DNA of 64,000 nt, taken from an uncultured Mycoplasmatota bacterium. Its GTDB lineage: Bacteria > Bacillota_I > Bacilli_A > RF39 > UBA660. The notes under the pieces were generated by a model, which was not told where the DNA came from, searched no databases, and saw only the letters and a list, made by a program, of their open reading frames with translations. Below are positions 7,825 to 56,017 of this stretch, in pieces. The position numbers were made by a program, and so were the translations under genes. Position 1 is the stretch's first letter; each line of letters starts with the position of its first letter. The stretch lies in NCBI GenBank assembly GCA_946413985.1, contig CAMKMS010000001.1, forward strand, positions 12,317 through 76,316. The letters run 5' to 3'.

Positions 7825-7852
7825 ATTATAACACAAAGTAAACTTATTTCAA
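7825..7852 (-). promoter_or_regulatory. argS promoter (TTGAAA-16-TGtTATAAT)
   Basis: The minus strand has -35 TTGAAA (7852-7847) and an extended -10 TGTTATAAT (7833-7825), about 30 nt upstream of the argS start. This leaves no room for a T-box leader. Confidence 0.6.
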
Positions 7853-7867
7853 CAAATTTACCCTCTT

Positions 7868-7896
7868 TTGACATTTTTATATTTTTATGTTAATAT
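7868..7896 (+). promoter_or_regulatory. Near-consensus sigma-A promoter driving the large ncRNA
   Basis: TTGACA (7868-7873), a 17-nt spacer, then TAATAT (7891-7896) with TG at 7888-7889 (extended -10). Confidence 0.75.
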
Positions 7897-7902
7897 TATT
7901 AA

Positions 7903-8369
7903 GTGTGTGGAGCACTATGCTAGTCAAATTTTTCACTAGAAGGTGGGGCTAAAAATCCACTAATTGCGTAAAATGATACTTTATATATTATGCTTCTCTC
8001 GCCCAGATTGGGGCAAATGTATAATTTTAGATTTAAGGATATTATATAATGGCATATATAAAAATTCCTTTCATCACATCGGAGATTATGAAAGCGCATG
8101 TCGTGAGTGATTTATTGGGATATTAATATTGAAAAATAAATTGCAAAAGCGAATAAAAGTGAAATATATTTGTTTGGGAAAACCTCTAGCGTGTCCTTAT
8201 TATAAAGATTGAGGTGCGGACTAAGTGGTGATCGAGTGATCATACTGGCAACATATGATTTGTATCTTTAAAAAGAAATTGCCTAAAGGTAACTAAGGGT
8301 AGATATAAGAGAAATTCAACTCGACCAAAGCCGTAAAATTAATTTGTAATAATCCATACAGTTTTTTTT
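7903..8369 (+). ncRNA. Large (~460 nt) structured non-coding RNA; candidate OLE-like RNA or novel class
   Basis: No ORF, and visibly higher G/C than the surroundings. A terminal helix pairs 7904-7911 with 8353-8360, immediately before a U9 tract. Internal hairpins lie at 7920-7939, 7943-7960, 8001-8014, 8035-8070, 8229-8242 (GAGU loop) and 8247-8283. A 4-TM protein gene follows directly. The class assignment is unverified. Confidence 0.6.
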
Positions 8370-8382
8370 TAGGAGAAAATAA

Positions 8383-8907
8383 ATGAAAAATGATAACTGG
8401 ATTTTAAAAGCTTTTTTTTATACTTTTTTTGTAGCTATAATTTTTAATACTTTTTCAAATGTTATAATTAATAAATTTGATAATATAATTATATTAATAA
8501 TATTAACTATTTTATTTGTTTTTATTGGAATACTATTTGATGTAGTCGGAACTGCTGTATTAACAGCTGAAGAAGCAACATTTCATGCTAAAAGTACAAA
8601 GAAAATAAAAGGTGCTAAAGAAGGCGTATATTTAATAAAAAATGGAAGCACTATATCTTCCATTTGTAATGATGTAATTGGCGATATTTGTGGAATAGTA
8701 AGTGGTGCTCTATCAGCTATGATTGCAATTATACTATCAACAAAATTTAATATTTCACCAATAATAACAATTATTATTATTAGTTCAGTTATATCATCAC
8801 TAACTGTTGGTGGAAAAGCAATTGGTAAAAAAATGGCTATTAAAAATAGCGATGATATTATATTTTTAGTTTCTAAAATATTAAGTAAATTTAAAAGAAG
8901 TTGTTAA
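8383..8907 (+). CDS. Small 4-TM membrane protein, DUF21/CNNM-TM-like; OapA-like candidate
   Basis: 174 aa with four hydrophobic helices. A TAEEAT..KIKGAKEGVYLIKNGSTISSICNDVIGDICGIVSG segment resembles the DUF21 core. It carries a DxxxD motif (D97, D101). AGGAG RBS 7 nt upstream. Confidence 0.5.
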   Translation: MKNDNWILKAFFYTFFVAIIFNTFSNVIINKFDNIIILIILTILFVFIGILFDVVGTAVLTAEEATFHAKSTKKIKGAKEGVYLIKNGSTISSICNDVIGDICGIVSGALSAMIAIILSTKFNISPIITIIIISSVISSLTVGGKAIGKKMAIKNSDDIIFLVSKILSKFKRSC

Positions 8908-8921
8908 CAACTTCTTTTTTT
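8893..8921. terminator. Bidirectional terminator shared by the 4-TM gene and typA
   Basis: GAAGTTG-TTAA-CAACTTC palindrome flanked by A-run and T-run. Confidence 0.7.
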
Positions 8922-10885: not shown

Positions 10886-11146
10886 ATGAATGAAGAATAT
10901 AATTTTAAAAATCAAGAAGAATTATATAGTATAATTGGAAAAAATATTAGATATTATAGAAAACTATATAGTTTAAATAAAAAAGAGCTTACTCAAGAAG
11001 CTCTTGCTGAAATTGCAAATGTTTCAACATCTCTTATAGGAAATCTAGAAAGTAAAAAAACACTTCAAGGTATCAGTATATATAATTTATATAAAATAAG
11101 TAAAATACTAGAAATACCTATTGAAAATTTCTTTATTGATAGGTAG
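10886..11146 (+). CDS. XRE-family helix-turn-helix regulator (paralog 1)
   Basis: 86 aa with an HTH_3-like core: LTQEALAEIANVSTSLIGNLESKK..GISIYNLYKISKILEIPIENFF. Confidence 0.8.
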   Translation: MNEEYNFKNQEELYSIIGKNIRYYRKLYSLNKKELTQEALAEIANVSTSLIGNLESKKTLQGISIYNLYKISKILEIPIENFFIDR

Positions 11147-11387
11147 ATTCAAAGAATTTATCCATTGTAACATTAAGTACTATTGAAATCTTATATAATG
11201 ATAATAATGACAATCCTTCACTACCTTTGGTACTTTCAAACTTTCTAATAAATTCTGGTGATACTCCAATATCTATTGCTAATTGTTCTTGAGTTATTCC
11301 ATTTAATTTTCTATATTTAATTACATTATATGCAACAACCTCAATTATATTATCATTAAAAACAAAATCTCTTTTAAATTTAGTCAT
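11133..11387 (-). CDS. XRE-family helix-turn-helix regulator (paralog 2)
   Basis: Core sequence ITQEQLAIDIGVSPEFIRKFES...LSLLSLYKISIVLNVTMDKFF. The start was set to the ATG at 11387, after an AGGTGAG RBS. Its 3' end overlaps paralog 1 convergently by 14 nt. Confidence 0.75.
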   Translation of the reverse strand: MTKFKRDFVFNDNIIEVVAYNVIKYRKLNGITQEQLAIDIGVSPEFIRKFESTKGSEGLSLLSLYKISIVLNVTMDKFFESTYQ

Positions 11388-11490
11388 ACATCTCACCTAT
11401 CTCTAATTTTACATTTTTTTATTATTTAATTATGTAAAGTTATACTATACATTTTTAAATGGATATTTTATAATTGTAATGGTGATTAAT

Positions 11491-11727
11491 ATGACTCAAG
11501 AAAAATTAAATGAATTAGTAGGTTATAATATTAAAAAATATAGACTTTTATATAACAAAACTCATAAAGATAAAATTACACAAGAAAAATTAGCAGAAGC
11601 AATAGGTTCTTCAGTTTCACTTATTAGTAATCTTGAATCAAATAAGATTAAACAGGGTATAAGTATTACAAATTTATATAAAATTGCTATTGTATTAGAA
11701 ACTCCTATAAATAATTTTTTTGAATAA
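11491..11727 (+). CDS. XRE-family helix-turn-helix regulator (paralog 3)
   Basis: Core sequence ITQEKLAEAIGSSVSLISNLESNK..GISITNLYKIAIVLETPINNFF. The start was set to the ATG at 11491, after a GGTGA RBS. It is transcribed divergently from paralog 2. Confidence 0.8.
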   Translation: MTQEKLNELVGYNIKKYRLLYNKTHKDKITQEKLAEAIGSSVSLISNLESNKIKQGISITNLYKIAIVLETPINNFFE

Positions 11728-11748
11728 AAAAGAATCAATAATAGATTC

Positions 11749-12825
11749 TTAATTAACATATACATCATACATTTTTTTATAAGTGAAAGTAACTCTATTA
11801 GTTCCTTTCTTTTTTTCTTTTATTATATATCCTTCTTGTTGTAATTTATTTAATACTTTATTAATTGAATTAATATGAAGTCCAGTTTCTTTAACTAAAT
11901 CATTTGTTGTAAAGACTATTTTCTTTATAATAACAGGATATACTTTAAAAATTGTTGATCCACCAATTCTTTCTTTAAATGAATTATAGTCATCATTATA
12001 TATTTTATTTAATTTCATTATATTCTTTATATTGATATTACATTCATTTATAATGCATTGAATCATCATTTTAATGAATTTATTTATATCTTCTTCTATT
12101 TCACCACTTAGTAATGTAAAATATGTATTTTTAAGATTTTCTATACTTTTAGATATAAATAATATTGGTGTTTCTTTTTTATACAATGATAATTGAATTG
12201 GAATTATTAAACGGCCAATTTTTCCATTCCCAGATATATATGGATGTAATTTTTCAAATTGAAAATGAGTTAAAATAGTAGATATAAAATAATTATCATT
12301 ATTATTATTAATATAATTTACTAAATCATCCATATAATAATCTAAATCTTTATATAATGGTGGAACAAAAGATACACTAGATCCAGCTAATCCTGGTTTT
12401 AATAAGAAATTCTGTTTCTTCCTAAATTTTCCACTACCTTTTGTAATGCTATTTTTTTTACATCCTTGAAATAAAACTTTATTAATTCTATTAAAAGTAT
12501 CTTTTGAAATGCTATCTTTTAAAGCATCCGATAAACCAATTAATAATCCTTTTTTTAAATTATTAAATTCAATTATATCATTTGAATTATTCATATAAGG
12601 AGTATGAAACATATATTCTTTTTCTATTTTGGTATTATCAATTTTAAAAGAATAAAATAAATCAGAAATAAAGGCATTTTCTAAATAACTTTTATAATCA
12701 AATAACATATTCTTTAAATATCCTTTATATTCTCCATACTTTTCAGTTGCTTCATATAATAAATTGTTAAGTTCTATATTATTAGTAAACTCTAAAGGCA
12801 TTTTTTTTGCTTTATAAGGTTCCAT
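11749..12825 (-). CDS. Fic/DOC-family protein with C-terminal winged-HTH; non-canonical active-site motif
   Basis: Fic core HPYISGNGKIGRLI (canonical form HxFx[D/E]GNGRxxR). An N-terminal Fic_N-like segment reads YSFKIDNTKIE. The C-terminus LNKLQQEGYIIKEKKKGTNRVTF is wHTH-like. GGAGGTG RBS. Confidence 0.8.
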   Translation of the reverse strand: MEPYKAKKMPLEFTNNIELNNLLYEATEKYGEYKGYLKNMLFDYKSYLENAFISDLFYSFKIDNTKIEKEYMFHTPYMNNSNDIIEFNNLKKGLLIGLSDALKDSISKDTFNRINKVLFQGCKKNSITKGSGKFRKKQNFLLKPGLAGSSVSFVPPLYKDLDYYMDDLVNYINNNNDNYFISTILTHFQFEKLHPYISGNGKIGRLIIPIQLSLYKKETPILFISKSIENLKNTYFTLLSGEIEEDINKFIKMMIQCIINECNINIKNIMKLNKIYNDDYNSFKERIGGSTIFKVYPVIIKKIVFTTNDLVKETGLHINSINKVLNKLQQEGYIIKEKKKGTNRVTFTYKKMYDVYVN

Positions 12826-12910: not shown

Positions 12911-13264
12911 TTATTTTGGATTTGGATATTCTAGTAAACCTTTACCATATCCTTCTAACCAATAAATTTTATTATTTCGAACTCTTAGTTTATAATAAAT
13001 TTCATATTTTATATTATCTTGATCAGAATATGTAAAGTATAAATTTGAAATACCATTTTTATTAACAGTAAAAGTCCAATTATTTGTGTCAGAACTGGAA
13101 AGTTCTAAATTATCATTATCTATTTTATAATTCCAATCATAATTTTCTAATTCATCATCAAGATAAATTGTAATACTTTTATCATATACACCTAAGTATG
13201 GATTATAAAAAATAATAAACATGCAAAGTATAAATGTAATAGAAAATATAATAATGTATCTCAT
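12911..13264 (-). CDS. Small membrane-anchored/exported protein, unknown function
   Basis: 117 aa with an N-terminal hydrophobic anchor (IIIFSITFILCMFIIF). AGGAG RBS, and a terminator hairpin after the stop. I recognised no family. Confidence 0.55.
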   Translation of the reverse strand: MRYIIIFSITFILCMFIIFYNPYLGVYDKSITIYLDDELENYDWNYKIDNDNLELSSSDTNNWTFTVNKNGISNLYFTYSDQDNIKYEIYYKLRVRNNKIYWLEGYGKGLLEYPNPK

Positions 13265-13485: not shown

Positions 13486-14260
13486 GAATATATTTATTTA
13501 ATGAAATTATATATTAAATTGATAATATATAATTATTATATAATAACAAAGTTAATTATTATTATATAATAGAATATATAAATTAAATTAATAAAATATA
13601 ATCACTATATATCAATAAAATTAATTATTAATATATAATAAAGTATATAAATTAAATTAAAATATATATATTATAATAAATATGATTAGCATTTATAATA
13701 CATAATAAATTAATATTAAATAAAATAAATGTAATAATATTTAAATAATGAAATAATAAGTGTTATATAGTTATAATATATATAAACAATAAATAAATTA
13801 ATATTTATTATAAATATATATTATATGGTTTAAATAAAGTAATAATATATTAAGAATAATTAATAAATTAATACCAATTATAAATAATATAAATTACAAT
13901 TATTTAAACATATAATAAATATAATTTAAAATATAATTAATAAATTAATATTAATAATATTTTAAAACTATAAATATTATTTAATAAATATAACAAAATA
14001 TTATATATAATTAATTAATAAGTTAATACTAATTAATTAGGAAGTATAATATCTAATATTATAAGTACATTATAATAATTAATAATACTATTAATATTAT
14101 TAATTAAAAATAATGTTGAAATATAATATCCACTATTATTTTAATTAAATAAATATATATAGATTTTTTCACCAATCAATAATAGATTAGATATATAAAT
14201 ATTAATAAAAAATTAATTTTATTAATATAATACACCTATCTACTATCTCTATTGGACATA
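13486..14260. repeat. Degenerate AT-only tandem repeat array (~10-11 units, 60-86 bp period) inside a 1,055-bp ORF-free intergenic region
   Basis: An AATTAATAAATTAATA-like core recurs at about 13486, 13551, 13620, 13704, 13792, 13862, 13939, 14009, 14076, 14143 and 14203. Units at 13548 and 13617 match at 40 of their first 44 positions. I counted 4 and 1 G/C in the two 60-nt lines beginning at 13861 and 13921. Confidence 0.6.
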
Positions 14261-21982: not shown

Positions 21983-23935
21983 ATGAAAAAATGTTTATTA
22001 TTTTTAAGAATACTTATTGTTCTTTTTTTCACTATAATTATATTTATATTAAGCCTTTATGTGTATGCTTTTATCACACCTAAAGTAAATATAAATGAAA
22101 TAGATAAAATCGTGTTATTAGATAAAGATGGTAATGATATATTTAATAAAGATTATAATAATTATGTTAAACTGAATGATATAAATGATAATATTAAAAA
22201 TGCTATTATTTCAATTGAAGACAAGAATTTTTATTCTCACAAAGGTTTTGATATTTTAAGAATTATAAAAGCATTAATAATAAATATAAAAAGTAAAAAT
22301 ATTGAACAAGGTGCTTCAACTATTTCTCAACAATATGTTAAAAATCTATATCTTACTTTTGATAAGACATGGAAAAGAAAAATAGAAGAAGCTATTCTAA
22401 CAATAAGAATTGAAATGCATTATACTAAAGATGAAATATTAGAAGGATATTTAAATACAATTGATTTTGGTGCTGGAAATTATGGTATAAAGGAAGCAAG
22501 TAATTATTATTTTAATAAAGAACCAAATGAATTATCTCTTGAAGAAGCCACTATTATTGTAGGAATTCCTAAAAGTCCAACTTATTATAATCCTATTATT
22601 AATTATAATAATGCTAAAAAACGTCAATATGATGTATTAACAAGTATGTATAAAAATGGATATATTAGTAAAAAAGAAGTAGAAAAAATATATAATAAAC
22701 AATTAGTTTTTTATGGTAAACATAACAAAATACAATTATCAAGTGCTTATTATTATAAAGACGCAGTTTTAAATGAAATGTCAAATTTAAATCAAATACC
22801 AAACTCACTTTTAGATTTTGATGAAATAAAAATATATACAAATTTTGATTCTGATGTTCAAAGAATATTAGAAAATAATATTGATGAAGAAATGAAAGAT
22901 ACAAGTATGCAAGTTGCATCTATTGTAGTAGAACCTAAAACAGGTAAAATTGTTTCCCTAATTGGTGGTAAAGATTATTCGAAATCTGAATATAATAGAG
23001 CTGTTTATTCTAAAAGACAAGTTGGATCAACAATTAAACCATTTTTATATTATTCTGCACTAGAAAATGGTTTTACTCCATCATCTACTTTTTTAAGTGA
23101 AAGAACAACTTTTAATTTAGGTAATGAATTATATTCACCAAGTAATTTTGGAAATAGATATGCTAATACTAATATTACAATGCTTCTTGCACTTGCTTCT
23201 TCTGACAATATCTATGCTATGAAGACACATTTGTTTTTAGGAATGGATAAATTAAGTGAAATTATTTCTAAAGTTAAAATTAAAGAAAAAGTAAAAGAAA
23301 ATGCAAGTTCTGCTCTTGGCACAACAGAAATAAATATAATTGATTTTTCTAATGGGTATATTACTCTTGCAAATGAAGGAAAACACGAGACACCACATTT
23401 AATTGAGAAAATTACAGATAATAGTGGAAATATATTATATGAATATAAATATAAAAATGAATATATTTTGAATAAAAAATATGTATATATTTTAAATAAT
23501 TTATTAACCTCTACTTATGATTATGATTTACTAAAATACACATCTCCTACTTTAGTTAGTATTTCAAGTTTAATTGATGGAAAATATGCATTAAAAAGTG
23601 GTAGTACAGAAACAGATTTTTGGACTATTGGTTATAATAAAGACTATTTAGTAATGGTTTGGGCCGGAAATGATAATAATGATAAAGTAGATCAAAATGA
23701 AACAAGAATACCAAAGAAAATATGGGCCAAAACTATTAGTACAATTCCATCAAATAAAAAAACTTGGTATGAAATTCCAAGTGGTATAACAAGTGATCAA
23801 ATTGATCCTTTAAGTGGAAAATATAAAATAAATGGATATACTTGTTATTATGAAAAAGGAAGTGAACCAAGTTTTAATTATATAGAATATTATGACTTAT
23901 TATCAAATGCTTCAAAAAAAAATCCTAATAATTAG
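21983..23935 (+). CDS. Class A penicillin-binding protein (glycosyltransferase + transpeptidase)
   Basis: GT51 motifs EDKNFYSHKGFD and RKIEEA. Transpeptidase motifs STIKP (SxxK), SDN and KSGS. Confidence 0.88.
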   Translation: MKKCLLFLRILIVLFFTIIIFILSLYVYAFITPKVNINEIDKIVLLDKDGNDIFNKDYNNYVKLNDINDNIKNAIISIEDKNFYSHKGFDILRIIKALIINIKSKNIEQGASTISQQYVKNLYLTFDKTWKRKIEEAILTIRIEMHYTKDEILEGYLNTIDFGAGNYGIKEASNYYFNKEPNELSLEEATIIVGIPKSPTYYNPIINYNNAKKRQYDVLTSMYKNGYISKKEVEKIYNKQLVFYGKHNKIQLSSAYYYKDAVLNEMSNLNQIPNSLLDFDEIKIYTNFDSDVQRILENNIDEEMKDTSMQVASIVVEPKTGKIVSLIGGKDYSKSEYNRAVYSKRQVGSTIKPFLYYSALENGFTPSSTFLSERTTFNLGNELYSPSNFGNRYANTNITMLLALASSDNIYAMKTHLFLGMDKLSEIISKVKIKEKVKENASSALGTTEINIIDFSNGYITLANEGKHETPHLIEKITDNSGNILYEYKYKNEYILNKKYVYILNNLLTSTYDYDLLKYTSPTLVSISSLIDGKYALKSGSTETDFWTIGYNKDYLVMVWAGNDNNDKVDQNETRIPKKIWAKTISTIPSNKKTWYEIPSGITSDQIDPLSGKYKINGYTCYYEKGSEPSFNYIEYYDLLSNASKKNPNN

Positions 23936-32830: not shown

Positions 32831-34219
32831 ATGAATATTGAAGATATTTGGGAAAAATTTTTATCAAAGATTAAATCAAAAGTTTCTTTAATGTCTTATA
32901 ATTATATTTTTAAAGATTTAAAATTACATTCTTATATTAATAGTAAAATCATTATTATTGTTCCTAATAATGAATTATTATTACAAAATATAACAAAAAA
33001 TTATGAATCTTTAATTGAAGAGACTTTAAATGATATTACTAATGATACATGTGCTATTCAATATGTATTTGAATCAGATATAAAAAATATAGATGATAAT
33101 TATTCATCAAATATTATCAATTCTGAAAATGAGGTTAAAAGTAATATAAATAATGATATTACTAATTATAATTATAGTAGTAATTTTAATCCTAAATATA
33201 CTTTTGATACTTTTGTCGTTGGGGAATCAAATAAACTTGCATACGGAACGGCACTTGCTGTTGCTCAAAATCCTGGTAAATTATATAATCCTTATTTTAT
33301 ATATGCAAGTAGTGGATTAGGAAAAACTCATTTAATGCACGCAATTGGCAATTATATAGTTACTCATTCAGATAAAAAAGTTTTATATATTACTGCTGAA
33401 CAATTTTCTAATGATTATAGATCAATAGTTAACTCTAACAATAATAATGTAACATATTTAGAAGCATTTAGAGAAAAATATAGAAATGTTGATGTATTAA
33501 TGATAGATGATATTCAGTTCCTTGAAAATAAAGAAAAAACACAAATAGAGTTTACCAATACATTTAATTCATTGCACGGAAATGATAAACAAATAATTAT
33601 TGCTTCAGATAAATCAATTAATGATTATAAATATTTAGAAGAAAGACTAAAAACAAGATTTAGATGGGGGCTAACTGAATCAATTAATCCACCAGAATAT
33701 GAATTAAAAAGAAATATTATAAAAAATAAGTTGATGGTAAATAATTTTGATTTTGATATTAATGATGAAATAATTGATTATATCGCTAATAATTGTGGAA
33801 GTGATATAAGAAATATTGAAGGTGCAGTAACTAGAATAGCTGCTTATAAGTCAATATTTAATATAGATGAAATAACAATTAATGATGCTAAAGATGCTTT
33901 AAAAGAATTTGTTGATACTCCTGTTTATAGAACTAATTCTATTTCAAAAATTATTGATATTGTATCAAAATACTATGGAATTGATAGTAGTATGATAAAA
34001 GGTAAAATGAAAAAAAAGAATATAGCTGAAGCAAGAGCAATAGTAATGTATTTAAGTAGAATACTAACAGAAGAAAGTTTAGAAAGAATTGGATTAGAAA
34101 TTGGAGGTAGAGATCATTCAACAGTAATATATTCTTATGAAAAAATATCTAATGAATTGAAAACAAATTTAAATTTACAAGAAGTAATAAGAATATTAAA
34201 AGATAAGTTACGTGAATAA
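32831..34219 (+). CDS. dnaA: Chromosomal replication initiator protein DnaA
   Basis: Walker A SGLGKTHL, Walker B MIDDIQFL, and a C-terminal DNA-binding GGRDHSTVIY. Confidence 0.97.
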   Translation: MNIEDIWEKFLSKIKSKVSLMSYNYIFKDLKLHSYINSKIIIIVPNNELLLQNITKNYESLIEETLNDITNDTCAIQYVFESDIKNIDDNYSSNIINSENEVKSNINNDITNYNYSSNFNPKYTFDTFVVGESNKLAYGTALAVAQNPGKLYNPYFIYASSGLGKTHLMHAIGNYIVTHSDKKVLYITAEQFSNDYRSIVNSNNNNVTYLEAFREKYRNVDVLMIDDIQFLENKEKTQIEFTNTFNSLHGNDKQIIIASDKSINDYKYLEERLKTRFRWGLTESINPPEYELKRNIIKNKLMVNNFDFDINDEIIDYIANNCGSDIRNIEGAVTRIAAYKSIFNIDEITINDAKDALKEFVDTPVYRTNSISKIIDIVSKYYGIDSSMIKGKMKKKNIAEARAIVMYLSRILTEESLERIGLEIGGRDHSTVIYSYEKISNELKTNLNLQEVIRILKDKLRE

Positions 34220-34348
34220 CTAATAATTTTACCAACAAATTAACATATAAAAAAATAATATAATAATTGATAAACACTTTAATCAATAAAGTTATTAACA
34301 ATATTAACAATCAATAATAATAATATAAAATAAAAAAGGAGGAATATT

Positions 34349-35467
34349 ATGAAATTATTAATTGAAAAAAATATTTTAATTGAAGGTTTGAGTTCAGTTA
34401 GTAGAGCATTATCTACTAGGAATATTATTCCAGTATTAAATGGAATTAAATTTGATTTAAAAAAGGATGGTTTATATTTAACAGCTACTGATAATGATAT
34501 TACTATTCAATATTTTATTGAAAAGAAAAGAATAAACAGTATTGAAGAAACAGGATGTTCAATAATATATGGTAAATCTTTATTAGATATTATAAGAAGA
34601 CTACCTGATTCTAATATATTAATTGAAAATTTTGAAAATAATGAAGTATCATTTAAAACTGAATCATCTAATTATAATTTTAATTGTTTTAGTGAAGAAG
34701 ATTATCCAAATATTAATTTAGAAGAAATTAAAACTCCAATAATATTAGATAGTACAAAGTTTAAAGAAGTTATAAATAAAACATCATTTGCTTGTTCTAT
34801 GCAAGAAAGTAGACCATTATTAACTGGAGTAAATATTAAAATTCAAGGTGATCTATTTGAATGTGTAGCTACAGATTCATATAGACTATCAAAAGTATCA
34901 TTAAACTTAAATAAAGTATATTCTGAAAATATTAATATTGTTATCCCAGCTAGAAATATAAATGAATTTGTTAAAATAATAAATGATGATGAAGAAATTG
35001 AAATGCATATATTTAGTAATAAAATAATATTTAAATTAAAAAATTTAATATTTCAATCTTCTTTATTAAATGGAAATTATCCTAATACTGATAATTCAAT
35101 TGCTAAAGAATTTAAATATATAGTTAAAGTAGATTTAAAAAATTTTTATAATACATTAGATAGAGCATCTTTATTAACTCAATCTAAAGATAAAAATATT
35201 ATTGATGTTGAATTAAATAATAATGATTTAATCATAAGAGCATCAAGCATTGATATTGGAAAAGTTGAAGAAAGATTTATTGTTGATAATGAAACAAATA
35301 ATTCACTTAGAATTTCATTTAGTGCTAAATATATGTTAGATGCTTTAAAAATGTTTAATAAAGAATATATATATATATTAATGAATGGTGAAATTAATCC
35401 TATAATATTAAAAGAAATTGATAATAATGAATTAATTGAATTAATTTTACCTATGAAAACATATTAA
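34349..35467 (+). CDS. dnaN: DNA polymerase III beta sliding clamp
   Basis: 372 aa with three-domain clamp similarity, directly after dnaA. Confidence 0.95.
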   Translation: MKLLIEKNILIEGLSSVSRALSTRNIIPVLNGIKFDLKKDGLYLTATDNDITIQYFIEKKRINSIEETGCSIIYGKSLLDIIRRLPDSNILIENFENNEVSFKTESSNYNFNCFSEEDYPNINLEEIKTPIILDSTKFKEVINKTSFACSMQESRPLLTGVNIKIQGDLFECVATDSYRLSKVSLNLNKVYSENINIVIPARNINEFVKIINDDEEIEMHIFSNKIIFKLKNLIFQSSLLNGNYPNTDNSIAKEFKYIVKVDLKNFYNTLDRASLLTQSKDKNIIDVELNNNDLIIRASSIDIGKVEERFIVDNETNNSLRISFSAKYMLDALKMFNKEYIYILMNGEINPIILKEIDNNELIELILPMKTY

Positions 35468-35490
35468 AAAACGAGAAATCGTTTTTTTTT
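35465..35490 (+). terminator. Rho-independent terminator after dnaN
   Basis: AAAACGA-GAAA-TCGTTTT followed by T9. Confidence 0.75.
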
Positions 35491-35576
35491 ATTATATGTT
35501 CGACAAAATATGACAAATTTCGACATACCCATTGTGTTATTGTAGATAACATTATTCAAGAAAGGGGGAAATTATA

Positions 35577-36041
35577 ATGAATTATGAAATAAATTATGAT
35601 ACACAATTATTATTACCAATAAATGATAAAAAAACCAAAATCATAGAACAAGAAAATGAATATGAAATTGATGAAAATATTAATAAAATAATGGAACATA
35701 GTTGTGAATATTTTGGTAGTTCATATGAAGGTAGAAAAGAAGGAACAAAAAAATTATTAGGCATTACTCATAAATCTCCAATTATTGTTGAAGAAAGTAG
35801 AAGATTAATTTTTTTTCCAACTGCATCTGTTGATAATTCAAAGTGTATATGGATTAATTTAGAAAAGATTGATAAGTATTTTAAATTAGATAAAAATAAT
35901 TCAGCAATTAGATTCAAAAATGGTAATATTATCAATTTAAATATATCTTATGGTTCACTTACAAATCAAATTTTAAGAGCATCAAGATTAAAATATGTTT
36001 TAGAAGAAAGAATTAGTTCAAAAAAAGATAATTATATCTAA
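35577..36041 (+). CDS. comK: ComK-family competence transcription factor
   Basis: ..CEYFGSSYEGRKEGTKKLLGITHKSPIIVEESRRLIFFPT.S....C.WI.. matches the ComK signature as I recall it from B. subtilis. AAGGGGGA RBS. Confidence 0.75.
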   Translation: MNYEINYDTQLLLPINDKKTKIIEQENEYEIDENINKIMEHSCEYFGSSYEGRKEGTKKLLGITHKSPIIVEESRRLIFFPTASVDNSKCIWINLEKIDKYFKLDKNNSAIRFKNGNIINLNISYGSLTNQILRASRLKYVLEERISSKKDNYI

Positions 36042-36143
36042 ATTATCTTTTTTTATGCCAATTTTTGTGTTATAATTATATTGCAGTAGAGGAGTACCTA
36101 AAAAAATAAAAATTAAAAATTTAGGGGGAAAATGAGGTTAAAA

Positions 36144-37223
36144 ATGAATATCACTAAGATTGAGTTAATTAATTTTAGAAATTATAAGAAAAAAAGCTAT
36201 GACAAATTCTCTAATTTAAATATTATAATTGGAAAGAATGGAATAGGTAAAACTTCTATAATTGAAGCTATATATTTAGGTAGCCTTGCAAAGTCATTTA
36301 AAACTAATAGTGATGATACTATTATTAATAATGATGCTGAATCATATAAAATAAAAATTTATTATTTTGATTATGGTTTAAATAATAATTTGGAAATTAT
36401 ATATGATAAAAGTGGTAAAAAAACGAAAATCAATTCTAAAATTCAAAAAAGACTTAGTGATTTTATTTCTCAATATAGGATTATTTTATTATCACCTGAT
36501 GAATTAAAATTAATAAAATCATCACCTAATATTAGAAGAAACTATATAAATATTCAAATATCGCAACTTCATAAAGAATACATTCATTATTTAAATAACT
36601 ATAATATTCTAATAAAAAATAAAAATGATTATTTAAAAAAAATGATGATTAATGGAAATTTAGATCAAAGATATTTAGATATTATAGATGAAAAAATAGT
36701 GGATGAAGGTATTAAAATATATAATTATAGAAAAGATTATATAAATAAAATTAATAATTATATAAATGATATTTTCAAAAATTATGATAAAAATAGTAAC
36801 ATTTATATTAAATATGTGTCTGATTATGAAATTTGTGATAAAGAAAAATTACTTAAAGAATTAAAAAGAATTAGAAAAAAAGAAATAAATTTAGGTATGA
36901 CTTCATTTGGAATTCATAGAGATGATTATGAATTTATTCACAATAATAATAATTCAAAAGAATTTAGTTCTCAAGGCCAACAAAAATTAATTGTTCTTGC
37001 TATGAAATTATCAGAAGTAAAAATATTTATAAATGATTATAATATAAAACCAATTTTACTTTTAGATGATTTATTTAGTGAATTAGATGAAAAAAATAGA
37101 AATAGTATTTTTAAATCAATTAATAAAGATACACAAGTATTTATTACAACTACAGATTTAAAAAATATTAATAAAAGATTATTAGAAAAAGCAAAAATAT
37201 ATAATTTAGATGAGAGGGTATGA
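36144..37223 (+). CDS. recF: DNA replication and repair protein RecF
   Basis: Walker [10 protein letters not shown], signature SQGQQK and Walker B LLLDD. The start is either 36144 (GAGG RBS) or 36132. Confidence 0.93.
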
Positions 37224-37227
37224 AATT

Positions 37228-39144
37228 ATGGATAATTATGATGTAAATGACATTCAAGTATTAGAAGGATTAGAAGCTGTAAGAAAAAGACCAGGTATGT
37301 ATATTGGTACCACTGATGTAAAAGGTCTTCATCATTTAGTATGGGAAATTGTAGATAATGCAATTGATGAAGCTTTAGCTGGTTATTGTAATAATATTGA
37401 AATTGTAGTAAATAAAGATAATTCTATTACAGTAAAAGATAATGGACGTGGTATTCCAGTTGGAATACATCCAAAAACAGGAATTTCAACTGTTGAAACT
37501 GTATATACAGTATTACATGCAGGTGGAAAATTTGGAGGAGGAGGATACAAAGTATCAGGAGGACTACATGGTGTTGGTGCTTCAGTTGTTAATGCACTTT
37601 CTAAATGGGTAACAGTTACAGTTTATAAAGATGGTAAAATATATGAAACAAAATTTGCAGATGGTGGAAAAACTGTTCAAAAATTAACTGTAATTGGAGA
37701 ATGCGAAAGTAATAGAACAGGTACTGTTGTTTCATTTAAACCAGATCCAGAAATATTTGATACTGATGTATATGATTATGAAACATTAAAAGTAAGAACA
37801 AGAGAACTAGCTTTCTTAAATAAAGGTCTTAAATTAACATTAAGAGATGATAGAGATGAAGAAGATACACAAGGAGATATATTCTTGTATGAAGGTGGAA
37901 TAAGTGAATATGTTAAATTTATTAATCAAGGTAAAACACCTCTTCATGAAGATATAATTCATCTTACTGGTGAAAAAAATGATATTCAATTTGAAGTAGC
38001 AATGCAATATAATAATGGCTATTCTGAAAATATATATTCATTTGTTAATAATATAAATACTCATGATGGAGGAACACATGAAGATGGAGTTAAAAGAGCT
38101 TTAGTTAGAGTTATTAATAGTTATGCAAGAAAGAATAAAATATTAAAAGATGCAGATGAAAATTTAAAAGATGAAGATGTAAGAGAAGGATTAACAATGA
38201 TTATTTCTTGTAAACATCCAAATCCACAATTTGAAGGACAAACAAAAGGAAGACTTGGTAATTCTGAGGTAAAAAATCTAGCTGATAGTGTTTTTTCTGA
38301 AGGATTTGAACAATTTTTACTTGAAAATCCAGAAGATGCAAGAATTATTATTAGTAAAGCAATATTAGCAAGAAATGCAAGAATGGCTGCAAAAAAAGCA
38401 AGAGAAGCAACGAGAAAAAGTGATTTAGCAACTACTAATTTCTTTGGTAAATTATCAGATTGTAAAAGTAAAGATCCAAGTGAATCAGAAATATTTATAG
38501 TCGAGGGAGATAGTGCCGGTGGATCTGCAAAAAAAGGTAGAGATTCAATGACTCAGGCTATTCTTCCTTTAAGAGGAAAAATACTTAATGTTGAAAAAGC
38601 AAGAATAGATAAAGCACTTGGAAATGAAGAAATAAAATCTATAATAACAGCTTTTGGAACAGGAATTGGAGAATACTTTGATTTATCAAAATTAAGATAT
38701 GACAAAATAATAATAATGACAGATGCTGATGTTGATGGAGCACATATAAGAGTACTATTATTAACACTATTTTATAGATTTTTTAGACCAATTGTTGAAA
38801 CTGGTCATGTATATGCTGCACAACCTCCATTATTTAGAATAATGCATGGAAAAACAAGAAAATATGTTTTAACAGAAGAAGAGAAAGATGAATATTTAGC
38901 ATCACTTCCTGAAAATGTAAGAAATCGTGCTGAAATAGCTCGTATGAAAGGTTTAGGAGAAATGGATGCAGAAGAATTAAATGAAACAACTATGGATATT
39001 AATAAAAGAGTATTAAGAAAAATAACTGTTACTGATTTAATCGCAGCAGATGCAATATTCGAAAAATTAATGGGTGATGAAGTAGAACCTAGACGTGAAT
39101 TTATTGAAAATAATGCAGTTAATGTTAAGAATCTAGATATATAA
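37228..39144 (+). CDS. gyrB: DNA gyrase subunit B
   Basis: [23 protein letters not shown] and [10 protein letters not shown]. The start was set to MDNYDV at 37228. Confidence 0.97.
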
Positions 39145-39156
39145 TAGGAGGGTAAA

Positions 39157-41685
39157 ATGGAAAATGATGAAGAAAAAAATATTGAAATAGATGATAATGA
39201 AGAAAATGATAGTCAAGAAGAAATAATTGATTATGGTGGACAATTTCATGAAAGAGATTCTCACGAGGAAAACAATATAGTTGATGAAGTAAAAGATTCA
39301 TTTTTAGATTATTCAATGAGTGTTATAACATCGCGTGCAATTCCAGATTTAAGAGATGGTTTAAAGCCAGTTCACAGAAGAATTCTATGGTCTATGTTTG
39401 AAGAAGGTAATACTCCAGATAAACCACATAGAAAATCTGCAACAACAGTTGGAAATGTTATGGGTCATTATCATCCTCATGGAGATGCTGCAATCTATGA
39501 TGCTATGGTAAGACTAGCACAAGATTTTAATCAAAGATATATGATGGTAGATGGACATGGTAATTTTGGAAATATTGAAGGTGATGGAGCAGCAGCTTCT
39601 CGTTATACTGAAGCAAGATTATCTAAAATATCTTTAGAATTGTTAAGAGATATAAATAAAGATACTGTAGATATGGATGACAATTTTGATGTTACAAGAA
39701 AAGAACCTAGAGTTTTGCCATCTAGATTTCCAAATATTTTAGTAAATGGTTCAATGGGAATTGCAGTTGGTATGGCAACAAATATTCCTCCTCATAACTT
39801 ATCTGAAGTAATTGATGGATGTATTGCATATATTGATAATCCTGATATTTCAACACTTGAACTAATGGAATATATTAAAGGTCCAGATTTTCCAACAGGA
39901 GGTATTATTCTCGGTAATTCTGGAATAAAGAAAGCTTATGAAACAGGAAGAGGATCAATTACAATTAGAAGTAAAGCCGAAATAGAAGAACATAATGGAC
40001 ATAATTCTATTATTATTACTGAAGTTCCATATGGTGTTAATACACAAGAATTAAAAGATAAAGTTGCAGAATTAGTTCATAATAAAATAATAGATGGAAT
40101 TACAGATTATCATACTGATTTAAAAAATGGAGTTAAAATAACAATTACATTAAAAAAAGATGCTAATGCTCAAGTTGTTTTGAATAATTTATTTAAACAT
40201 ACTGCTTTCCAAGTAAATTATGGAATAATATTCTTAATGTTAGATGGCTTAACTCCTCGTACACTCGGATTAAAAGATATTATTAGTAAATATATTGATC
40301 ATCAAAAAGAAGTAATAATTAGAAGAACTAAATTTGATTTGGCGAAGGATGAAAAAAGAGTACACATTCTAGAGGGTTATAGAATTGCATTAAACAACAT
40401 TGATGAAGTTGTTAAAATTATTAGAAATGCAGATGATGATGCCGATGCTAAAGAAAAATTAATGGATAGATTTGGTTTAGATGAGGTACAATCTGATGCA
40501 ATTTTAGAATTAAGATTAAGAAGATTAACTGGTTTAGAAAGAGAAAAAATAGAAGATGAATTGAATAATTTACTAGCCGAAATAGAAGAATTAAAATCAA
40601 TTTTAGCTTCAAATCAAAAAGTATTAGATATTATAAAGAAAGAAATGCTTGATATAAAAGATAGATATGGTGATGAAAGAAGAACAAAAATTGATATGAC
40701 AGCAATTGATTATATAGAAGATGAGGAATTGATACCTCAAGAAGAAGTAATAGTTACAATAACAAATAAAAATTATATTAAACGTATTACTAAGGATACT
40801 TATAAATCACAAAATAGAGGTGGAGTTGGTATAAAAGGAATGACTACAACAGACGAAGATTTTGTAGAACAATTACTTCCAATGAATACACATGACTATA
40901 TCTTATTCTTCTCAAATAAAGGAAAAGTATATAGATTAAAAGGTTATAAGATACCTGAATATTCAAGAACTGGTAAAGGATTACCTTTAATTAACTTATT
41001 AAATATAGAAAAAGATGAAAAAATTAATACTATTCTAAAAGTAAATGATAGTGATACAAATAAATGTTTGCTTTTTGCTACTAAAAATGGATTGATTAAA
41101 AGAACTAAATTAAGTGATTTTGATAATATTAGACAAACAGGTAAAATTGCAATAACACTTAAAGAGGAAGATGAATTAATAGCTGTAAAAGTAACTTCTG
41201 ATGATAGTCAAATATTAATGTGTTCTTCAAAAGGAAGAATGGTTAGATTTGCTGCAAATGAAGTAAGAATAATGGGTCGTACAGCATCAGGTGTTAGAGG
41301 TATAAATTTATCTAATGATATATGTGTTGGAGCAGAAATATCAGAACCAGGCAAATTATTATTAGTTGTAACTGAAAATGGTTATGGTAAAAAGACAGCA
41401 ATTGAAGAATATAGAGAAACAAAAAGAGGTAGTAAAGGAGTTAAAACATTAAATATATCTGATAAAAATGGAAAAATTATTAGTTTTAAATCAACAAATA
41501 ATGATCAGGATTTAATGATAATAACTACTTTTGGAATTATAATCAGATTGGATGTTAATTCTATATCTCAAATGGGAAGAGTAACTAAAGGCGTTAAATT
41601 AATTAATCTTAAAGATAATAATAAAGTAGCATCAATATCTTTAGTTGATAAAGAAAATGAAATTGAACAAGTAGAAGAAGAATAA
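39157..41685 (+). CDS. gyrA: DNA gyrase subunit A
   Basis: DGLKPVHRR, HPHGD and AAASRYTE (catalytic Tyr), with a C-terminal beta-pinwheel. It has an unusually long acidic N-terminal extension. Confidence 0.97.
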   Translation: MENDEEKNIEIDDNEENDSQEEIIDYGGQFHERDSHEENNIVDEVKDSFLDYSMSVITSRAIPDLRDGLKPVHRRILWSMFEEGNTPDKPHRKSATTVGNVMGHYHPHGDAAIYDAMVRLAQDFNQRYMMVDGHGNFGNIEGDGAAASRYTEARLSKISLELLRDINKDTVDMDDNFDVTRKEPRVLPSRFPNILVNGSMGIAVGMATNIPPHNLSEVIDGCIAYIDNPDISTLELMEYIKGPDFPTGGIILGNSGIKKAYETGRGSITIRSKAEIEEHNGHNSIIITEVPYGVNTQELKDKVAELVHNKIIDGITDYHTDLKNGVKITITLKKDANAQVVLNNLFKHTAFQVNYGIIFLMLDGLTPRTLGLKDIISKYIDHQKEVIIRRTKFDLAKDEKRVHILEGYRIALNNIDEVVKIIRNADDDADAKEKLMDRFGLDEVQSDAILELRLRRLTGLEREKIEDELNNLLAEIEELKSILASNQKVLDIIKKEMLDIKDRYGDERRTKIDMTAIDYIEDEELIPQEEVIVTITNKNYIKRITKDTYKSQNRGGVGIKGMTTTDEDFVEQLLPMNTHDYILFFSNKGKVYRLKGYKIPEYSRTGKGLPLINLLNIEKDEKINTILKVNDSDTNKCLLFATKNGLIKRTKLSDFDNIRQTGKIAITLKEEDELIAVKVTSDDSQILMCSSKGRMVRFAANEVRIMGRTASGVRGINLSNDICVGAEISEPGKLLLVVTENGYGKKTAIEEYRETKRGSKGVKTLNISDKNGKIISFKSTNNDQDLMIITTFGIIIRLDVNSISQMGRVTKGVKLINLKDNNKVASISLVDKENEIEQVEEE

Positions 41686-41835: not shown

Positions 41836-41915
41836 GTGCAACAAATAGAATACGAATCAGGTCAGAATTGGAAAATAGCAGCCTTAAGTATAATATTTGT
41901 GTGCACATTTTTTTT
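41836..41915 (+). ncRNA. ffs: Signal recognition particle RNA, minimal (helix 8 only) form
   Basis: CAGGUCAGAAUUGGAAAAUAGCAGCC matches the conserved domain IV (CAGGUCAG....GGAA...AGCAGCC of 4.5S RNA). A closing stem pairs GUGCAACAAAUA with UAUUUGUGUGCAC. A U8 tract follows. Confidence 0.75.
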
Positions 41916-41924
41916 GGAGTAAAT

Positions 41925-42326
41925 ATGAAAAAATATTATGAGTTATTAAAAAAATTAAATAATAAAGCAATAAAGAATGGAGATGTGCCAATATCTGCAA
42001 TTATTGTGCATCAAAATAAAATAATAGCAAAAGAATATAATAGAAAATATAAAAATAATGATCCTTTTGCACATGCAGAAATTTTAGCAATAAAAAAGGC
42101 ATCAAAGGTACTAAAAACGCCTAATTTAAGTGAATGTGAATTGTATGTAACTTTACTTCCTTGTAATATGTGCAAAGAAGTAATTAAAGAATCTAAAATA
42201 AAAAAAGTATATTATTTTATTAACAATAATAAAGAAATTAATTATAAAGTAAATTATTCAAAGTTGGTTGATGAAAATGATTATTTTTCTAAGGAATTAT
42301 CTGATTTTTTTCAACAGAAAAGATAG
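41925..42326 (+). CDS. tadA: tRNA-specific adenosine deaminase
   Basis: Zinc motifs HAE and PCNMC. The start was set to the ATG at 41925 (GGAG RBS); the ORF-track start at 41868 lies inside the SRP RNA. Confidence 0.88.
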   Translation: MKKYYELLKKLNNKAIKNGDVPISAIIVHQNKIIAKEYNRKYKNNDPFAHAEILAIKKASKVLKTPNLSECELYVTLLPCNMCKEVIKESKIKKVYYFINNNKEINYKVNYSKLVDENDYFSKELSDFFQQKR

Positions 42327-51960: not shown

Positions 51961-51999
51961 AAAATAATACCTGTATCAAAATATTATTAGGTGATTTGT

Positions 52000-52503
52000 T
52001 TGAAAAATACAGGAATTATTAGAAAGATAGATGATTTAGGAAGAATTGTTCTTCCAAAAGAGCTTAGAAATTCTCTTAATATTAATTCAGGAGATGATTT
52101 TGAAATAACAATTGATAATAAAAAAATTATATTGGAAAAATTTTCTAAATTAGATTCTTTTGAAGATATAATAAAAAAATATATCAATTGTTTTTATGTA
52201 TCTGAAAATTCAAAATTATTTATTACCATTAATGATAGAATAATAAACTATAATGATGAAAAAGTAACAAATATTATTTCAAAATTAATAAAATTAAGAA
52301 AAATATATATGAATAATAAAACAGATAAAATAATAATTAGTGATAATTTAAATTTAAATGGAAAAGTAATAATATATCCTATTGTAATAAATAGTGATTT
52401 ACTTGGATCTATTATTTATATTTTTAATGAAGATATTAATAATGCAATGGATAAATGCAAAATATTTTATAATATATTTAAAAACATTATAGTTAATAAA
52501 TAG
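52000..52503 (+). CDS. spoVT: Stage V sporulation protein T (AbrB-type N-domain + GAF-like C-domain)
   Basis: TGIIRKIDDLGRIVLPKELRNSLNI..GD is a SpoVT-AbrB swapped-hairpin motif. It lies directly after mfd, as in Bacillus. The likely start is the TTG at 52000, after an AGGTGA RBS. Confidence 0.82.
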   Translation: MKNTGIIRKIDDLGRIVLPKELRNSLNINSGDDFEITIDNKKIILEKFSKLDSFEDIIKKYINCFYVSENSKLFITINDRIINYNDEKVTNIISKLIKLRKIYMNNKTDKIIISDNLNLNGKVIIYPIVINSDLLGSIIYIFNEDINNAMDKCKIFYNIFKNIIVNK

Positions 52504-52536
52504 ATTTTATATTATAATACTTTTAAGAGGTGTATT

Positions 52537-53280
52537 ATGATAGATACTCATGCACATATTTTAAATGAATATTATGATGATATTGATTCATTAGTTAAAA
52601 TGTTAAAAGAAAATAAAGTTTTGTATGTTTTAAATGCTGCATCTAATTATAATGAATCTCTTGAAGTATTAGATTTATCAAAAACATATAATAATTTTTT
52701 ATTACCGGTAATAGGTATTCATCCAGAAAGTATTAATGATAAAGATAATTTAAATAAAATTGAAGATTTAATAAAAAATAATAAAATATATGCTGTGGGT
52801 GAAATTGGTCTTGATTATTATTGGGTGAAAGATAATAAAGAAGAACAAAAAGAATTATTTATTAATCAAATAAAACTTGCACAAAAATATAATTTACCAG
52901 TTGTTGTTCATTCAAGAGATGCTATTCAAGATACTTTTGATATTTTAAAAGAACATAGAGTTAAAGGAGTAATTCATTCTTATTCTGGAAGTGTTGAGAT
53001 GGCTCGCGAATTTATTAAACTTGGTTATAAATTAGGTATTGGTGGAGTATTAACATTTAAAAATTCAAAATTATATGAAGTGATAGAAAAAATAGATATA
53101 GAAAATATTGTTTTAGAAACAGATAGCCCATATTTAACACCTGAGCCATATAGAGGTAGAGAAAATAATCCATCTAATATATATTATGTTGCAAAAAGAA
53201 TATCTGAAATAAAAGGAATAGATATTAATAAAGTCCTTGAAATTACTACAAAAACAGCTATTCAACTTTTTGACATTTAG
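52537..53280 (+). CDS. tatD: TatD-family metal-dependent DNase/hydrolase
   Basis: MIDTHAHI, GEIGLDY, HSRDA and ETDSPYL motifs. Confidence 0.9.
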   Translation: MIDTHAHILNEYYDDIDSLVKMLKENKVLYVLNAASNYNESLEVLDLSKTYNNFLLPVIGIHPESINDKDNLNKIEDLIKNNKIYAVGEIGLDYYWVKDNKEEQKELFINQIKLAQKYNLPVVVHSRDAIQDTFDILKEHRVKGVIHSYSGSVEMAREFIKLGYKLGIGGVLTFKNSKLYEVIEKIDIENIVLETDSPYLTPEPYRGRENNPSNIYYVAKRISEIKGIDINKVLEITTKTAIQLFDI

Positions 53281-53315
53281 TACTACTTATTATATAATTT
53301 TTATAGGAGAAGTAT

Positions 53316-53873
53316 ATGAAGCAGTATGTAATAAGTAGAATAACAATGGCTATTGAATTAATAATAGTATTTGTTTTAATTATTTTTGGAACTGGTAAAG
53401 AAACATTTAGTGTTTCTAGTCTTTCTGTTGCTAATAATATGGATTATGAAAAAAACTTATCTGCTTCAATTATAAAAAGTAATCAAAATGAATTATATAT
53501 TAAAGGATTATATAGTCCATTATATACATTTACTGGTGATTTAACTGGATATGCAGGTGATTGTGCTCTTTGTACTGGATACCTTGCGTGTCCTCCAAGA
53601 ACTAATGTTTTAAAAGAAGGTATTTATTATAATGATAAAACATATGGAACAGTTAGAATAGTTGCTAGTAGTAGAAATTATCCATGTGGAACAATAATAA
53701 GATTTAAAGTTAGTAAATTATCTAAAGATCCAATTTATGCAATAATACTTGATAGAGGCGTGGGTGGAAATGATATTGATTTATTAACTGAAAATGAAGA
53801 TTATGCAAGAAAAAGTGTTGGTAGAGTTAGAGATTTAGAATTTGAAGTTATTAGAGAAGGATGGAAAAAATGA
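53316..53873 (+). CDS. Membrane-anchored 3D (DPBB, MltA/RlpA-like) domain protein, short YabE-like
   Basis: N-terminal TM segment. The C-terminus ..GTVRIVASS.NYPCGTIIRF......ILDRGVGGNDIDLL.. is typical of 3D domains. It sits at the position of yabE. Confidence 0.65.
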   Translation: MKQYVISRITMAIELIIVFVLIIFGTGKETFSVSSLSVANNMDYEKNLSASIIKSNQNELYIKGLYSPLYTFTGDLTGYAGDCALCTGYLACPPRTNVLKEGIYYNDKTYGTVRIVASSRNYPCGTIIRFKVSKLSKDPIYAIILDRGVGGNDIDLLTENEDYARKSVGRVRDLEFEVIREGWKK

Positions 53874-54640: not shown

Positions 54641-54699
54641 AAATATATCAAATTAGATATATTTTTTTTATTTTGAAATAATATTTAAAAGGGGATTAT

Positions 54700-55446: not shown

Positions 55447-55655
55447 ATATTAATAGTATAAAAAATAAAATATTTGAATTAAAAAATATAAGATTAAAAA
55501 TAAAGATTAATTTAGGTAGAAATAAATATGAACATTTAGAAGGCTATATAGAAAAAATACATCCAAATATATTTACAATAAAAACGAATAAAGGAATAAA
55601 ATCATTTAGTTATTCAGACGTTGCTACAAAGGTAGTTATAATAAGCAAATTTTAA
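55443..55655 (+). CDS. veg: Veg protein
   Basis: 70 aa with ..GRNKYEHLEGYIEKIHPNIFTIK......SFSYSDV... typical of Veg. TTG start overlapping the yabG stop. Confidence 0.8.
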   Translation: MNINSIKNKIFELKNIRLKIKINLGRNKYEHLEGYIEKIHPNIFTIKTNKGIKSFSYSDVATKVVIISKF

Positions 55656-55664
55656 AGATTATTA

Positions 55665-55693
55665 TTGCACTTATTAACAATTTGTATTATAAT
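55665..55693 (+). promoter_or_regulatory. spoVG promoter (TTGCAC-17-TATAAT)
   Basis: TTGCAC (55665-55670), a 17-nt spacer, then TATAAT (55688-55693). Confidence 0.55.
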
Positions 55694-55723
55694 TAATTTA
55701 GCTAATGGTTAAGGAGGTACTAA

Positions 55724-56008: not shown

Positions 56009-56017
56009 AAAATAAAT

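Follow-up and report, generated by a model that had tools for sequence, protein, structure and literature searches.

The locus described here lies in a window of 64,000 nucleotides (nt; positions are counted from its first letter) on contig CAMKMS010000001.1 of an uncultured Mycoplasmatota bacterium (GenBank assembly GCA_946413985.1). Here argS, on the minus strand, is followed on the plus strand by a structured region and by a gene for a 174-amino-acid (aa) protein, and then by typA, again on the minus strand. The initial annotation had taken the structured region for a large non-coding RNA (ncRNA) and had left two readings of it: a short, divergent pair of OLE RNA and its membrane protein OapA, or an undescribed ncRNA-membrane protein system. 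Scanning of the whole window against Rfam 15 gave a match to the OLE RNA model (RF01071) at 7891-8373 (+); its score of 208 bits (E = 4.6e-57) compares with a gathering score of 50. The match spans model positions 1 to 616 and is not truncated, the element measuring 483 nt against the 616 positions of the model. OLE alone matched, as no Rfam riboswitch or leader model, M-box and others included, reached threshold in 7850-8400; the search of this kind that the initial annotation had suggested thus returned OLE from end to end and no riboswitch. Of the 104 Rfam model pairs that are represented in the window, 93 are standard base pairs, and the window agrees with the consensus at 167 of the 234 highly conserved (upper-case) model positions shown in the alignment (71%). 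The region has a G+C content of 31% (23.7% for the whole window) and contains no long open reading frame (ORF), both as previously noted. Three short, unconserved ORFs overlap it, two on the minus strand (59 and 43 aa) and one of 48 aa on the plus strand; they were rejected as genes, because variation in the relatives tracks base-pairing and not codons. When compared with shuffled versions, folding stability proved specific to the plus strand (z = -3.14, against -0.42 for the minus strand), and this value and the 93 standard pairs bear out the internal hairpins that had been proposed.

Homologues of the 174-aa protein number more than 3,000 and are mostly unnamed metagenome proteins. We assembled 81 loci, 80 from a scan of species-representative genomes and one (L001) from an exact protein look-up, and in 78 of them an OLE-like sequence lay just upstream of the OapA homologue. 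Where the Rfam scan was applied (19 loci), OLE was found upstream of the homologue in every case, and the matches fell into two size groups. The short group (10 loci; 479-503 nt, 212-242 bits) comes from gut metagenome-assembled genomes (MAGs) labelled uncultured Bacilli, Erysipelotrichaceae, Clostridium sp., Mycoplasma sp., Mycoplasmatota and Ca. Coprovivens, while the long group (9 loci; 548-673 nt, 317-505 bits) comes from MAGs labelled Clostridia, Congzhengia, Thermovenabulum, Anaerosolibacter and Bacillota, and Bacilli for two loci. The window protein is related to the proteins that directly follow full-length OLE in Clostridia, Thermovenabulum and Anaerosolibacter, and this kinship, with the full-length match to RF01071, upholds the first of the two readings. 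The full-model match, the shared conserved blocks, the same helices and the homologous partner identify the RNA as OLE, and we hold with high confidence that the locus is ole-oapA, comprising a short OLE RNA of the published "variant 2" type and the gene for OapA. The family figures in Rfam from the early releases onwards, its short form has likewise been described, and the element is not a new kind of RNA.

The fold was examined in an alignment (A2) of the window OLE with 34 short relatives from other species-level genomes, found and aligned with local nhmmer and MAFFT (74% mean column identity). The structure tested consisted of the Rfam-derived pairs plus P1, P2 and P3/P3.1 added by hand (133 pairs), and the same structure with partners slid by 1-3 columns served as control. 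A covariation test on relatives upstream of OapA orthologues had been suggested in the initial annotation, and its outcome was clear-cut: 89.8% of the cells were standard pairs (36-43% in the slid controls), compensatory changes on both sides occurred at 71 pairs (23-34 in the controls), and the covariation score reached 0.356 (at most 0.088 in the controls), a value attained in none of 500 shuffles. RNAalifold, run without an input structure, gave the same architecture plus one 5-bp helix (7964-7968/8093-8097). The A-rich loop of P4, GCCCA of P5.1 and GGCAU of P6.1 are invariant in 35/35 sequences; these three loops form the dimer contacts in cryo-electron microscopy (cryo-EM) structures of OLE (PMC12265935). 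Likewise, all 35 sequences have a P13 loop of the GNRA type, which reads GCAA in the window, and the P13 stem contains an unpaired base. In published work this loop and bulge constitute the OapB site; since the same loop also contacts P12.2 intramolecularly, its conservation is not proof that OapB is present.

The short OLE RNA (7891-8373, +) is delimited by the Rfam match and supported by covariation in 35 sequences and by strand-specific stability, and its helices, all on the plus strand, are named below after the published scheme, in which domain 1 comprises P3-P9 and domain 2 comprises P1, P2 and P10-P15. P1 closes the whole RNA by pairing 7904-7911 (UGUGUGGA) with 8353-8360 (UCCAUACA), 8 bp including one G-U as read directly; at its innermost pair (alignment columns 25/516), 16 sequences have A-U and 16 have U-A. 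The terminal helix perceived in the initial annotation is this P1. P2 (helices 2-3) pairs 7912-7923 (GCAC..GCUAG, with a palindromic CUAG) with 8186-8194 (CUAGCGUGU); its column pair 33/347 shows five pair types, and the CAG/CUG of the Rfam consensus is replaced by CAC/GUG in the window. The 5' strands of P3 and P3.1 (7925-7937; helices 4-5) pair at 7925-7929 with 8168-8172 and at 7931-7937 with 8158-8164, and several of these pairs, also returned by RNAalifold, occur as 3-4 pair types. Together they measure 12 bp, as stated for the helix that is proposed to span the membrane (PMC12265935). The P4 hairpin (7942-7961) exposes the A-rich loop CUAAAAAU, the bases of which are invariant, on a covarying stem (A-U in 19, G-C in 14).

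The additional, strongly covarying helix detected by RNAalifold, 7964-7968 (UGCGU) with 8093-8097 (GCGCA), closes a subdomain made, after the loss of P7 and P8, of P5 and P6 and is called P4a by position only; its columns (80-84/219-223) include one pair that is U-A in 16, U-G in 9, C-G in 6 and A-U in 4 sequences, and another that is G-C in 20 and A-U in 12. Within this subdomain lie the P5/P5.1 hairpin (7980-8025; helix 7; loop GCCCA at 8001-8005, with CCCA invariant) and the P6/P6.1 hairpin (8030-8075; helices 8-9; loop AUGGCA at 8049-8054, with GGCAU invariant). A linker of 24 nt (8076-8099) then replaces J6/7, P7, P8 and J8/9 (model positions 191-285, about 95 positions), the alignment setting 8+7 nt of the window against model gaps of 44+36 positions. 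P9 (8100-8153; helices 10-12) is truncated, its distal 48 model positions being reduced to a 4-nt tip within AUAUUAAUAU, and is followed by the mini-hairpin P10 (8175-8185, UGGGAAAACCU; helix 13). The P11 hairpin (model 424-435), which would sit between 8194 and 8197, is absent. The 3' domain P12-P14.1 (8197-8352; helices 14-19) is built of P12 (8197-8206 with 8343-8352), P12.1 (8215-8219 with 8331-8335), P12.2 (8232-8237 with 8319-8324), P13 (8239-8259, with GCAA at 8248-8251 and a bulged A) and P14/P14.1 (8260-8308, loop GUAA at 8289-8292).

Overall, the window OLE has no P7, P8 or P11, and P9 has lost its distal part. In a full-length relative, that of Thermovenabulum (L067; 582 nt, 505 bits), P7 is a long hairpin at model positions 199-241 and P8 a hairpin at 250-277, and their replacement by a short linker is common to all 35 aligned sequences. 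The initial annotation had hesitated over the length, as OLE RNAs measure about 600 nt; the shortfall is accounted for by the absence of P7, P8 and P11 and the truncation of P9. At 483 nt the window OLE is therefore not of the full-length form (about 600 nt with P7 and P8), which leaves its membership of the family unaffected. According to Fernando and Breaker (mSphere 2024; PMC11332333), OLE RNAs from GTDB genomes fall into three groups: full-length; variant 1, mostly from TANB77, in which P7, P8 and P9 are shortened and the OapB site, located at the P13 tip, is often missing; and variant 2, commonly from the order RF39, in which P7 and P8 are entirely absent. The authors also remark that the genomes of the uncultured gut lineages with short OLE are reduced and that OapB and OapC are for the most part missing from them.

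With variant 2, the window element shares the absence of P7/P8, the retention of the conserved OLE blocks, an oapA gene directly downstream, and an uncultured host from the gut whose genome is AT-rich and reduced. The loss of P11, the minimal tip of P9 and the conserved private promoter described below find no mention in the available portion of PMC11332333. Variant 1 is also shortened and also occurs in genome-reduced gut Bacillota, but it keeps shortened forms of P7, P8 and P9, whereas the window OLE is without P7/P8 and has kept the GNRA loop and bulge of P13. In common with full-length OLE (RF01071; Halalkalibacterium halodurans, Clostridium acetobutylicum) are P1-P6, P9, P10 and P12-P14.1, the A-rich P4, GCCCA P5.1 and GGCAU P6.1 loops, the 12-bp P3/P3.1, the GNRA loop and bulge of P13, and oapA as the next gene. 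Apart from its length and missing stems, the window element differs from that form in its altered kink-turn (k-turn) strands, its own promoter in place of a long polycistronic operon, and its flanking genes argS and typA.

The oapA gene (8371-8907, +) begins with a ribosome-binding site (RBS; AGGAG, 8371-8375) and a coding sequence at 8383-8907 (ATG at 8383; 174 aa). AlphaFold2 (pLDDT 83.7) predicts four long helices at residues 5-30, 35-61, 88-122 and 126-154. In an alignment of 23 sequences, both aspartates of the DxxxD motif (DVIGD; D97 and D101) are invariant, as are H68, K73 and K79 of the basic cluster (loop KSTKKIKGAK), K70 and K74 being nearly so. The closest folds returned by Foldseek for the predicted structure were archaeal CorB (7m1t, 7m1u) and the CorC transmembrane domain (7cfg), and a relationship to the CNNM/CorB-like fold has also been published for OapA of H. 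halodurans. The Pfam CNNM family (PF01595) scored 18.3 bits, below its threshold of 28.4; no NCBIfam model covered the 174-aa protein, and a sequence search against solved structures gave nothing meaningful for it (best, the permease PotB with E = 0.27). Judged by its sequence, this protein is OapA, the membrane partner of OLE: it has the length of about 170 aa, the four transmembrane helices, the DxxxD motif, the basic cytoplasmic loop, the CNNM-like fold and the gene position immediately 3' of ole, no differing feature was found, and it is about 40-50% identical to OapA proteins beside full-length OLE. With the CNNM Mg2+ transporters MpfA, CorB and CorC it shares a similar transmembrane fold and the weak Pfam match; unlike these, it stays below the Pfam threshold, lacks CBS/CorC domains, has four helices and not three, and possesses a DxxxD motif, which is absent from CNNM domains.

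Upstream of P1 lies a sigma-70-type promoter (7868-7896, +) with a -35 box TTGACA (7868-7873), a 17-nt spacer and an extended -10 box TGtTAATAT (7888-7896; TG at 7888-7889, TAATAT at 7891-7896), scoring 10/12. By itself this promoter is weak evidence, because chance alone would give 9.7 promoter-like sites and the scan found 14. A near-consensus promoter (10-12/12, always with a 17-nt spacer) nevertheless ends 5-10 nt before P1 in every one of the 35 short-variant loci, with the extended -10 TG in 33 of them, and it is kept whatever the upstream gene; the strong plus-strand promoter that the initial annotation had seen in the window is thus a recurrent part of the locus. Transcription would start near 7903, and the RNA proper probably extends from about 7903 to 8361-8370, that is, over some 460 nt. 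Because only 20-45 nt carrying an RBS and nothing else separate P1 from the oapA start in 33/35 short-variant loci, oapA must, on this spacing, be read from the same transcript as ole, and the two genes look like one self-contained transcription unit, whereas OLE of H. halodurans lies in a long polycistronic operon. Two loci showed a broken spacing, one with a terminator-like hairpin between OLE and oapA (L025:1575-1645; AAAAAGATTTC...GAAATCTTTTTT) and the other with about 400 nt, apparently an extra ORF, at this place (L023:3580-4000). A run of nine T follows P1 in the window (8362-8370, +). The succession of a U tract and the RBS of the 174-aa gene was correctly recognised in the initial annotation, which had put the tract at 8361-8369. 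The scan did not call a terminator there, and the tract is not conserved, being present in the window and some relatives and absent in many close ones (e.g. L002-L012). It may act as a leaky stop and so determine how much free OLE RNA is made relative to ole-oapA read-through, a function that would be at most lineage-specific.

The gene order argS (-), ole and oapA (+), typA (-) is kept only in the closest clade (OapA 59-76% identical) and was not found in the other short-variant loci, so that the unusual argS/typA context pointed out in the initial annotation is real in the window and confined to one clade. The terms typA, argS, promoter and RF39 find no mention in PMC12265935. The argS gene has a promoter of its own at 7852-7825 (-; TTGAAA, 16 nt, TATAAT with TG), and its likely start is at 7795, behind GGAGAGGTG. 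A T-box or other leader of argS was accordingly rejected, as already argued in the initial annotation, since the structure lies on the opposite strand and argS has this promoter and a short 5' untranslated region. At the other end, a bidirectional terminator hairpin (8893-8918; 11-bp stem, T runs on both strands) serves oapA (+) and the convergent typA (-). In another locus, where the neighbour is rpmE and not typA, an L31-Firmicutes leader (RF03156, 37.1 bits) directly follows oapA (L019:4591-4624, +).

Elsewhere in the window, a PGK RNA motif (RF03040; 13378-13470, -; 75.8 bits, gathering score 50.8) precedes not a phosphoglycerate kinase gene but one for a 117-aa hypothetical protein (12911-13264; N-terminal hydrophobic segment, no Pfam match). 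The region 13500-14100 belongs to a non-coding stretch of about 700 nt with only 5-7% G+C and degenerate tandem repeats (unit of 69-70 nt, 2.5-2.8 copies, 78-79% matches). This stretch is flanked by the PGK RNA and a Fe-hydrogenase-like gene, and a consensus-like promoter (TTGACA near 14291, -) lies upstream of it. A small signal recognition particle (SRP) RNA (RF00169; 41827-41922, +; 50.8 bits) overlaps the called TTG start of a deaminase-like ORF (41868-42326), the true start of which is therefore probably further downstream. The origin cluster dnaA-dnaN-recF-gyrB-gyrA occupies 32831-41685, and a ComK-family gene (PF06338, E = 5e-46) was found at 35577-36041 (+), between the ORFs read by eye as dnaN and recF. 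Right after typA (10886-12825) come three genes of the HTH_3/XRE type (82-87 aa, alternating orientation) and a 358-aa Fic-domain gene, a set also present in a near-identical contig of GCA_016648615.1. In a genome that otherwise looks reduced, 51991-56996 encodes sporulation-type SpoVT, YabG peptidase and YabP, with a weak YabQ match and with veg and spoVG recognised by eye. A class A penicillin-binding protein (21983-23935) and MurA were also read by eye, and the organism therefore probably has a cell wall.

As to the host, the labels of the relatives (Bacilli, Mycoplasmatota or Clostridium MAGs) fit the Bacillota host range of OLE, and the window itself encodes a Fe-only hydrogenase and the sporulation-type proteins YabG, YabP and SpoVT. 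Ca. Coprovivens, one of the 34 short relatives, carries an OLE of 482 nt (L052) and belongs to the GTDB order RF39, family CAG-1000 (PMC8035907), and this ties the short group to RF39. The host of the window is accordingly placed, as a probable assignment, in RF39 or a close neighbour of that order.

Several points weigh against assigning the locus to variant 2 OLE or against extending to it what is established for other OLE RNAs. The link to RF39 runs through that one named relative, and its OapA is only about 47-50% identical to that of the window. The score of 208 bits is among the lowest Rfam scores seen for the short class (208-219 bits in the window clade); PMC11332333 delimits variant 2 by scores of 235-310 bits under a covariance model of the authors' own, and as that model is a different one, the label used here rests on anatomy and not on the published cut-offs. 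The J4a/5 strand is altered, with UGAUAC in the window where the consensus has GAUGAAG, and the sequence of J6/7 is not conserved among the short variants; in full-length OLE these two k-turn strands bind OapC (YbxF, of the L7Ae family), and no L7Ae/KOW match was obtained among the small ORFs scanned in the 64-kb window. The window clade has also lost the long arch of P9 together with its kissing loop; the P9 tip varies in length within the short group and is short also in some high-scoring relatives. Because of the altered or unconserved k-turn strands and the missing kissing loop, the mechanism may differ in detail from that of H. halodurans. Moreover, we infer the 5' end, the 3' end and the abundance of the RNA.

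Could the region be only a cis-acting 5' leader of oapA, a riboswitch or attenuator such as an Mg2+ sensor, in which P1 and the U tract stop transcription unless a signal is present? Its place directly upstream of oapA, with which it is almost certainly co-transcribed, the T9 run after P1, and the CNNM-like fold of OapA, given that CNNM proteins move Mg2+, would all suit such a leader. We consider it very unlikely, however, as OLE was the only Rfam family at threshold in this region, the U tract is missing in many close relatives and not called as a terminator, the OLE of H. halodurans is stable, abundant, OapA-binding and membrane-localised, and some 460 nt with about 130 covarying pairs far exceed what attenuation needs. 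The same body of relatives speaks to the idea of a decaying, non-functional OLE remnant in a shrinking genome. The missing P7, P8, P11 and distal P9, the 208 bits against 400-505 for full-length members, and a reduced-genome lineage of the sort reported in PMC11332333 to be largely without OapB and OapC are what one might expect of a remnant; yet the same architecture recurs in 35 species-level genomes at 74% mean column identity, with long invariant blocks and abundant compensatory changes, and the near-consensus promoter and an intact oapA are kept in all of them. A relic would not covary, and we regard decay as extremely unlikely. Finally, an undescribed large ncRNA and membrane-protein system that merely resembles OLE, the second reading left by the initial annotation, could draw on the 133 nt by which the element falls short of the model and on an argS/typA neighbourhood unlike the classical one. 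It is excluded, for practical purposes with near certainty, by the full-model match (E = 4.6e-57), conserved blocks shared throughout, helices that are those of OLE, and a partner protein homologous to those beside full-length OLE.

For the OLE-OapA pair retained here, the following course of events may be envisaged. In an uncultured, very AT-rich and anaerobic gut member of the Bacilli, the strong private promoter would start transcription a few nt before P1, the RNA of about 460 nt would fold into the two-domain OLE architecture (P1, P2 and P10-P14 in one domain, P3-P9 in the other) with the domains joined by the 12-bp P3/P3.1 helix, and read-through past the non-conserved U tract would yield the oapA message. 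As in the Clostridium cryo-EM structures, the RNA may dimerise through its P4, P5.1 and P6.1 loops; as in H. halodurans, it would bind the CNNM-like four-helix OapA, sit at or in the membrane, and help the cell to withstand stresses such as cold, alcohols, too much Mg2+ or a poor carbon source. According to the literature, OLE forms dimers, binds OapA and is found at the membrane; in H. halodurans, where it is abundant and stable, the cells need it to tolerate short-chain alcohols, cold, poor carbon sources and an excess of Mg2+. By analogy, we infer the same role here, possibly with fewer protein partners, an idea already raised in PMC11332333. A more specific proposal, that the locus encodes a natural minimal OLE particle, a one-promoter ole-oapA unit stripped of P7, P8, P11, the P9 arch and conserved k-turn strands, in which OapA would be the only partner and neither OapC nor perhaps OapB would be needed, is possible but rather doubtful.

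As a discovery the locus carries little weight, since the family is known and its P7/P8-less short form was published in 2024. Its practical value lies in offering a compact natural OLE-OapA pair (an RNA of about 460 nt and a 174-aa protein under one promoter, with 35 aligned sequences), which could serve structural and reconstitution work and help to define the dispensable parts of OLE. If the proposal of a minimal particle is true, the short form would mark the core that is sufficient for OLE function.

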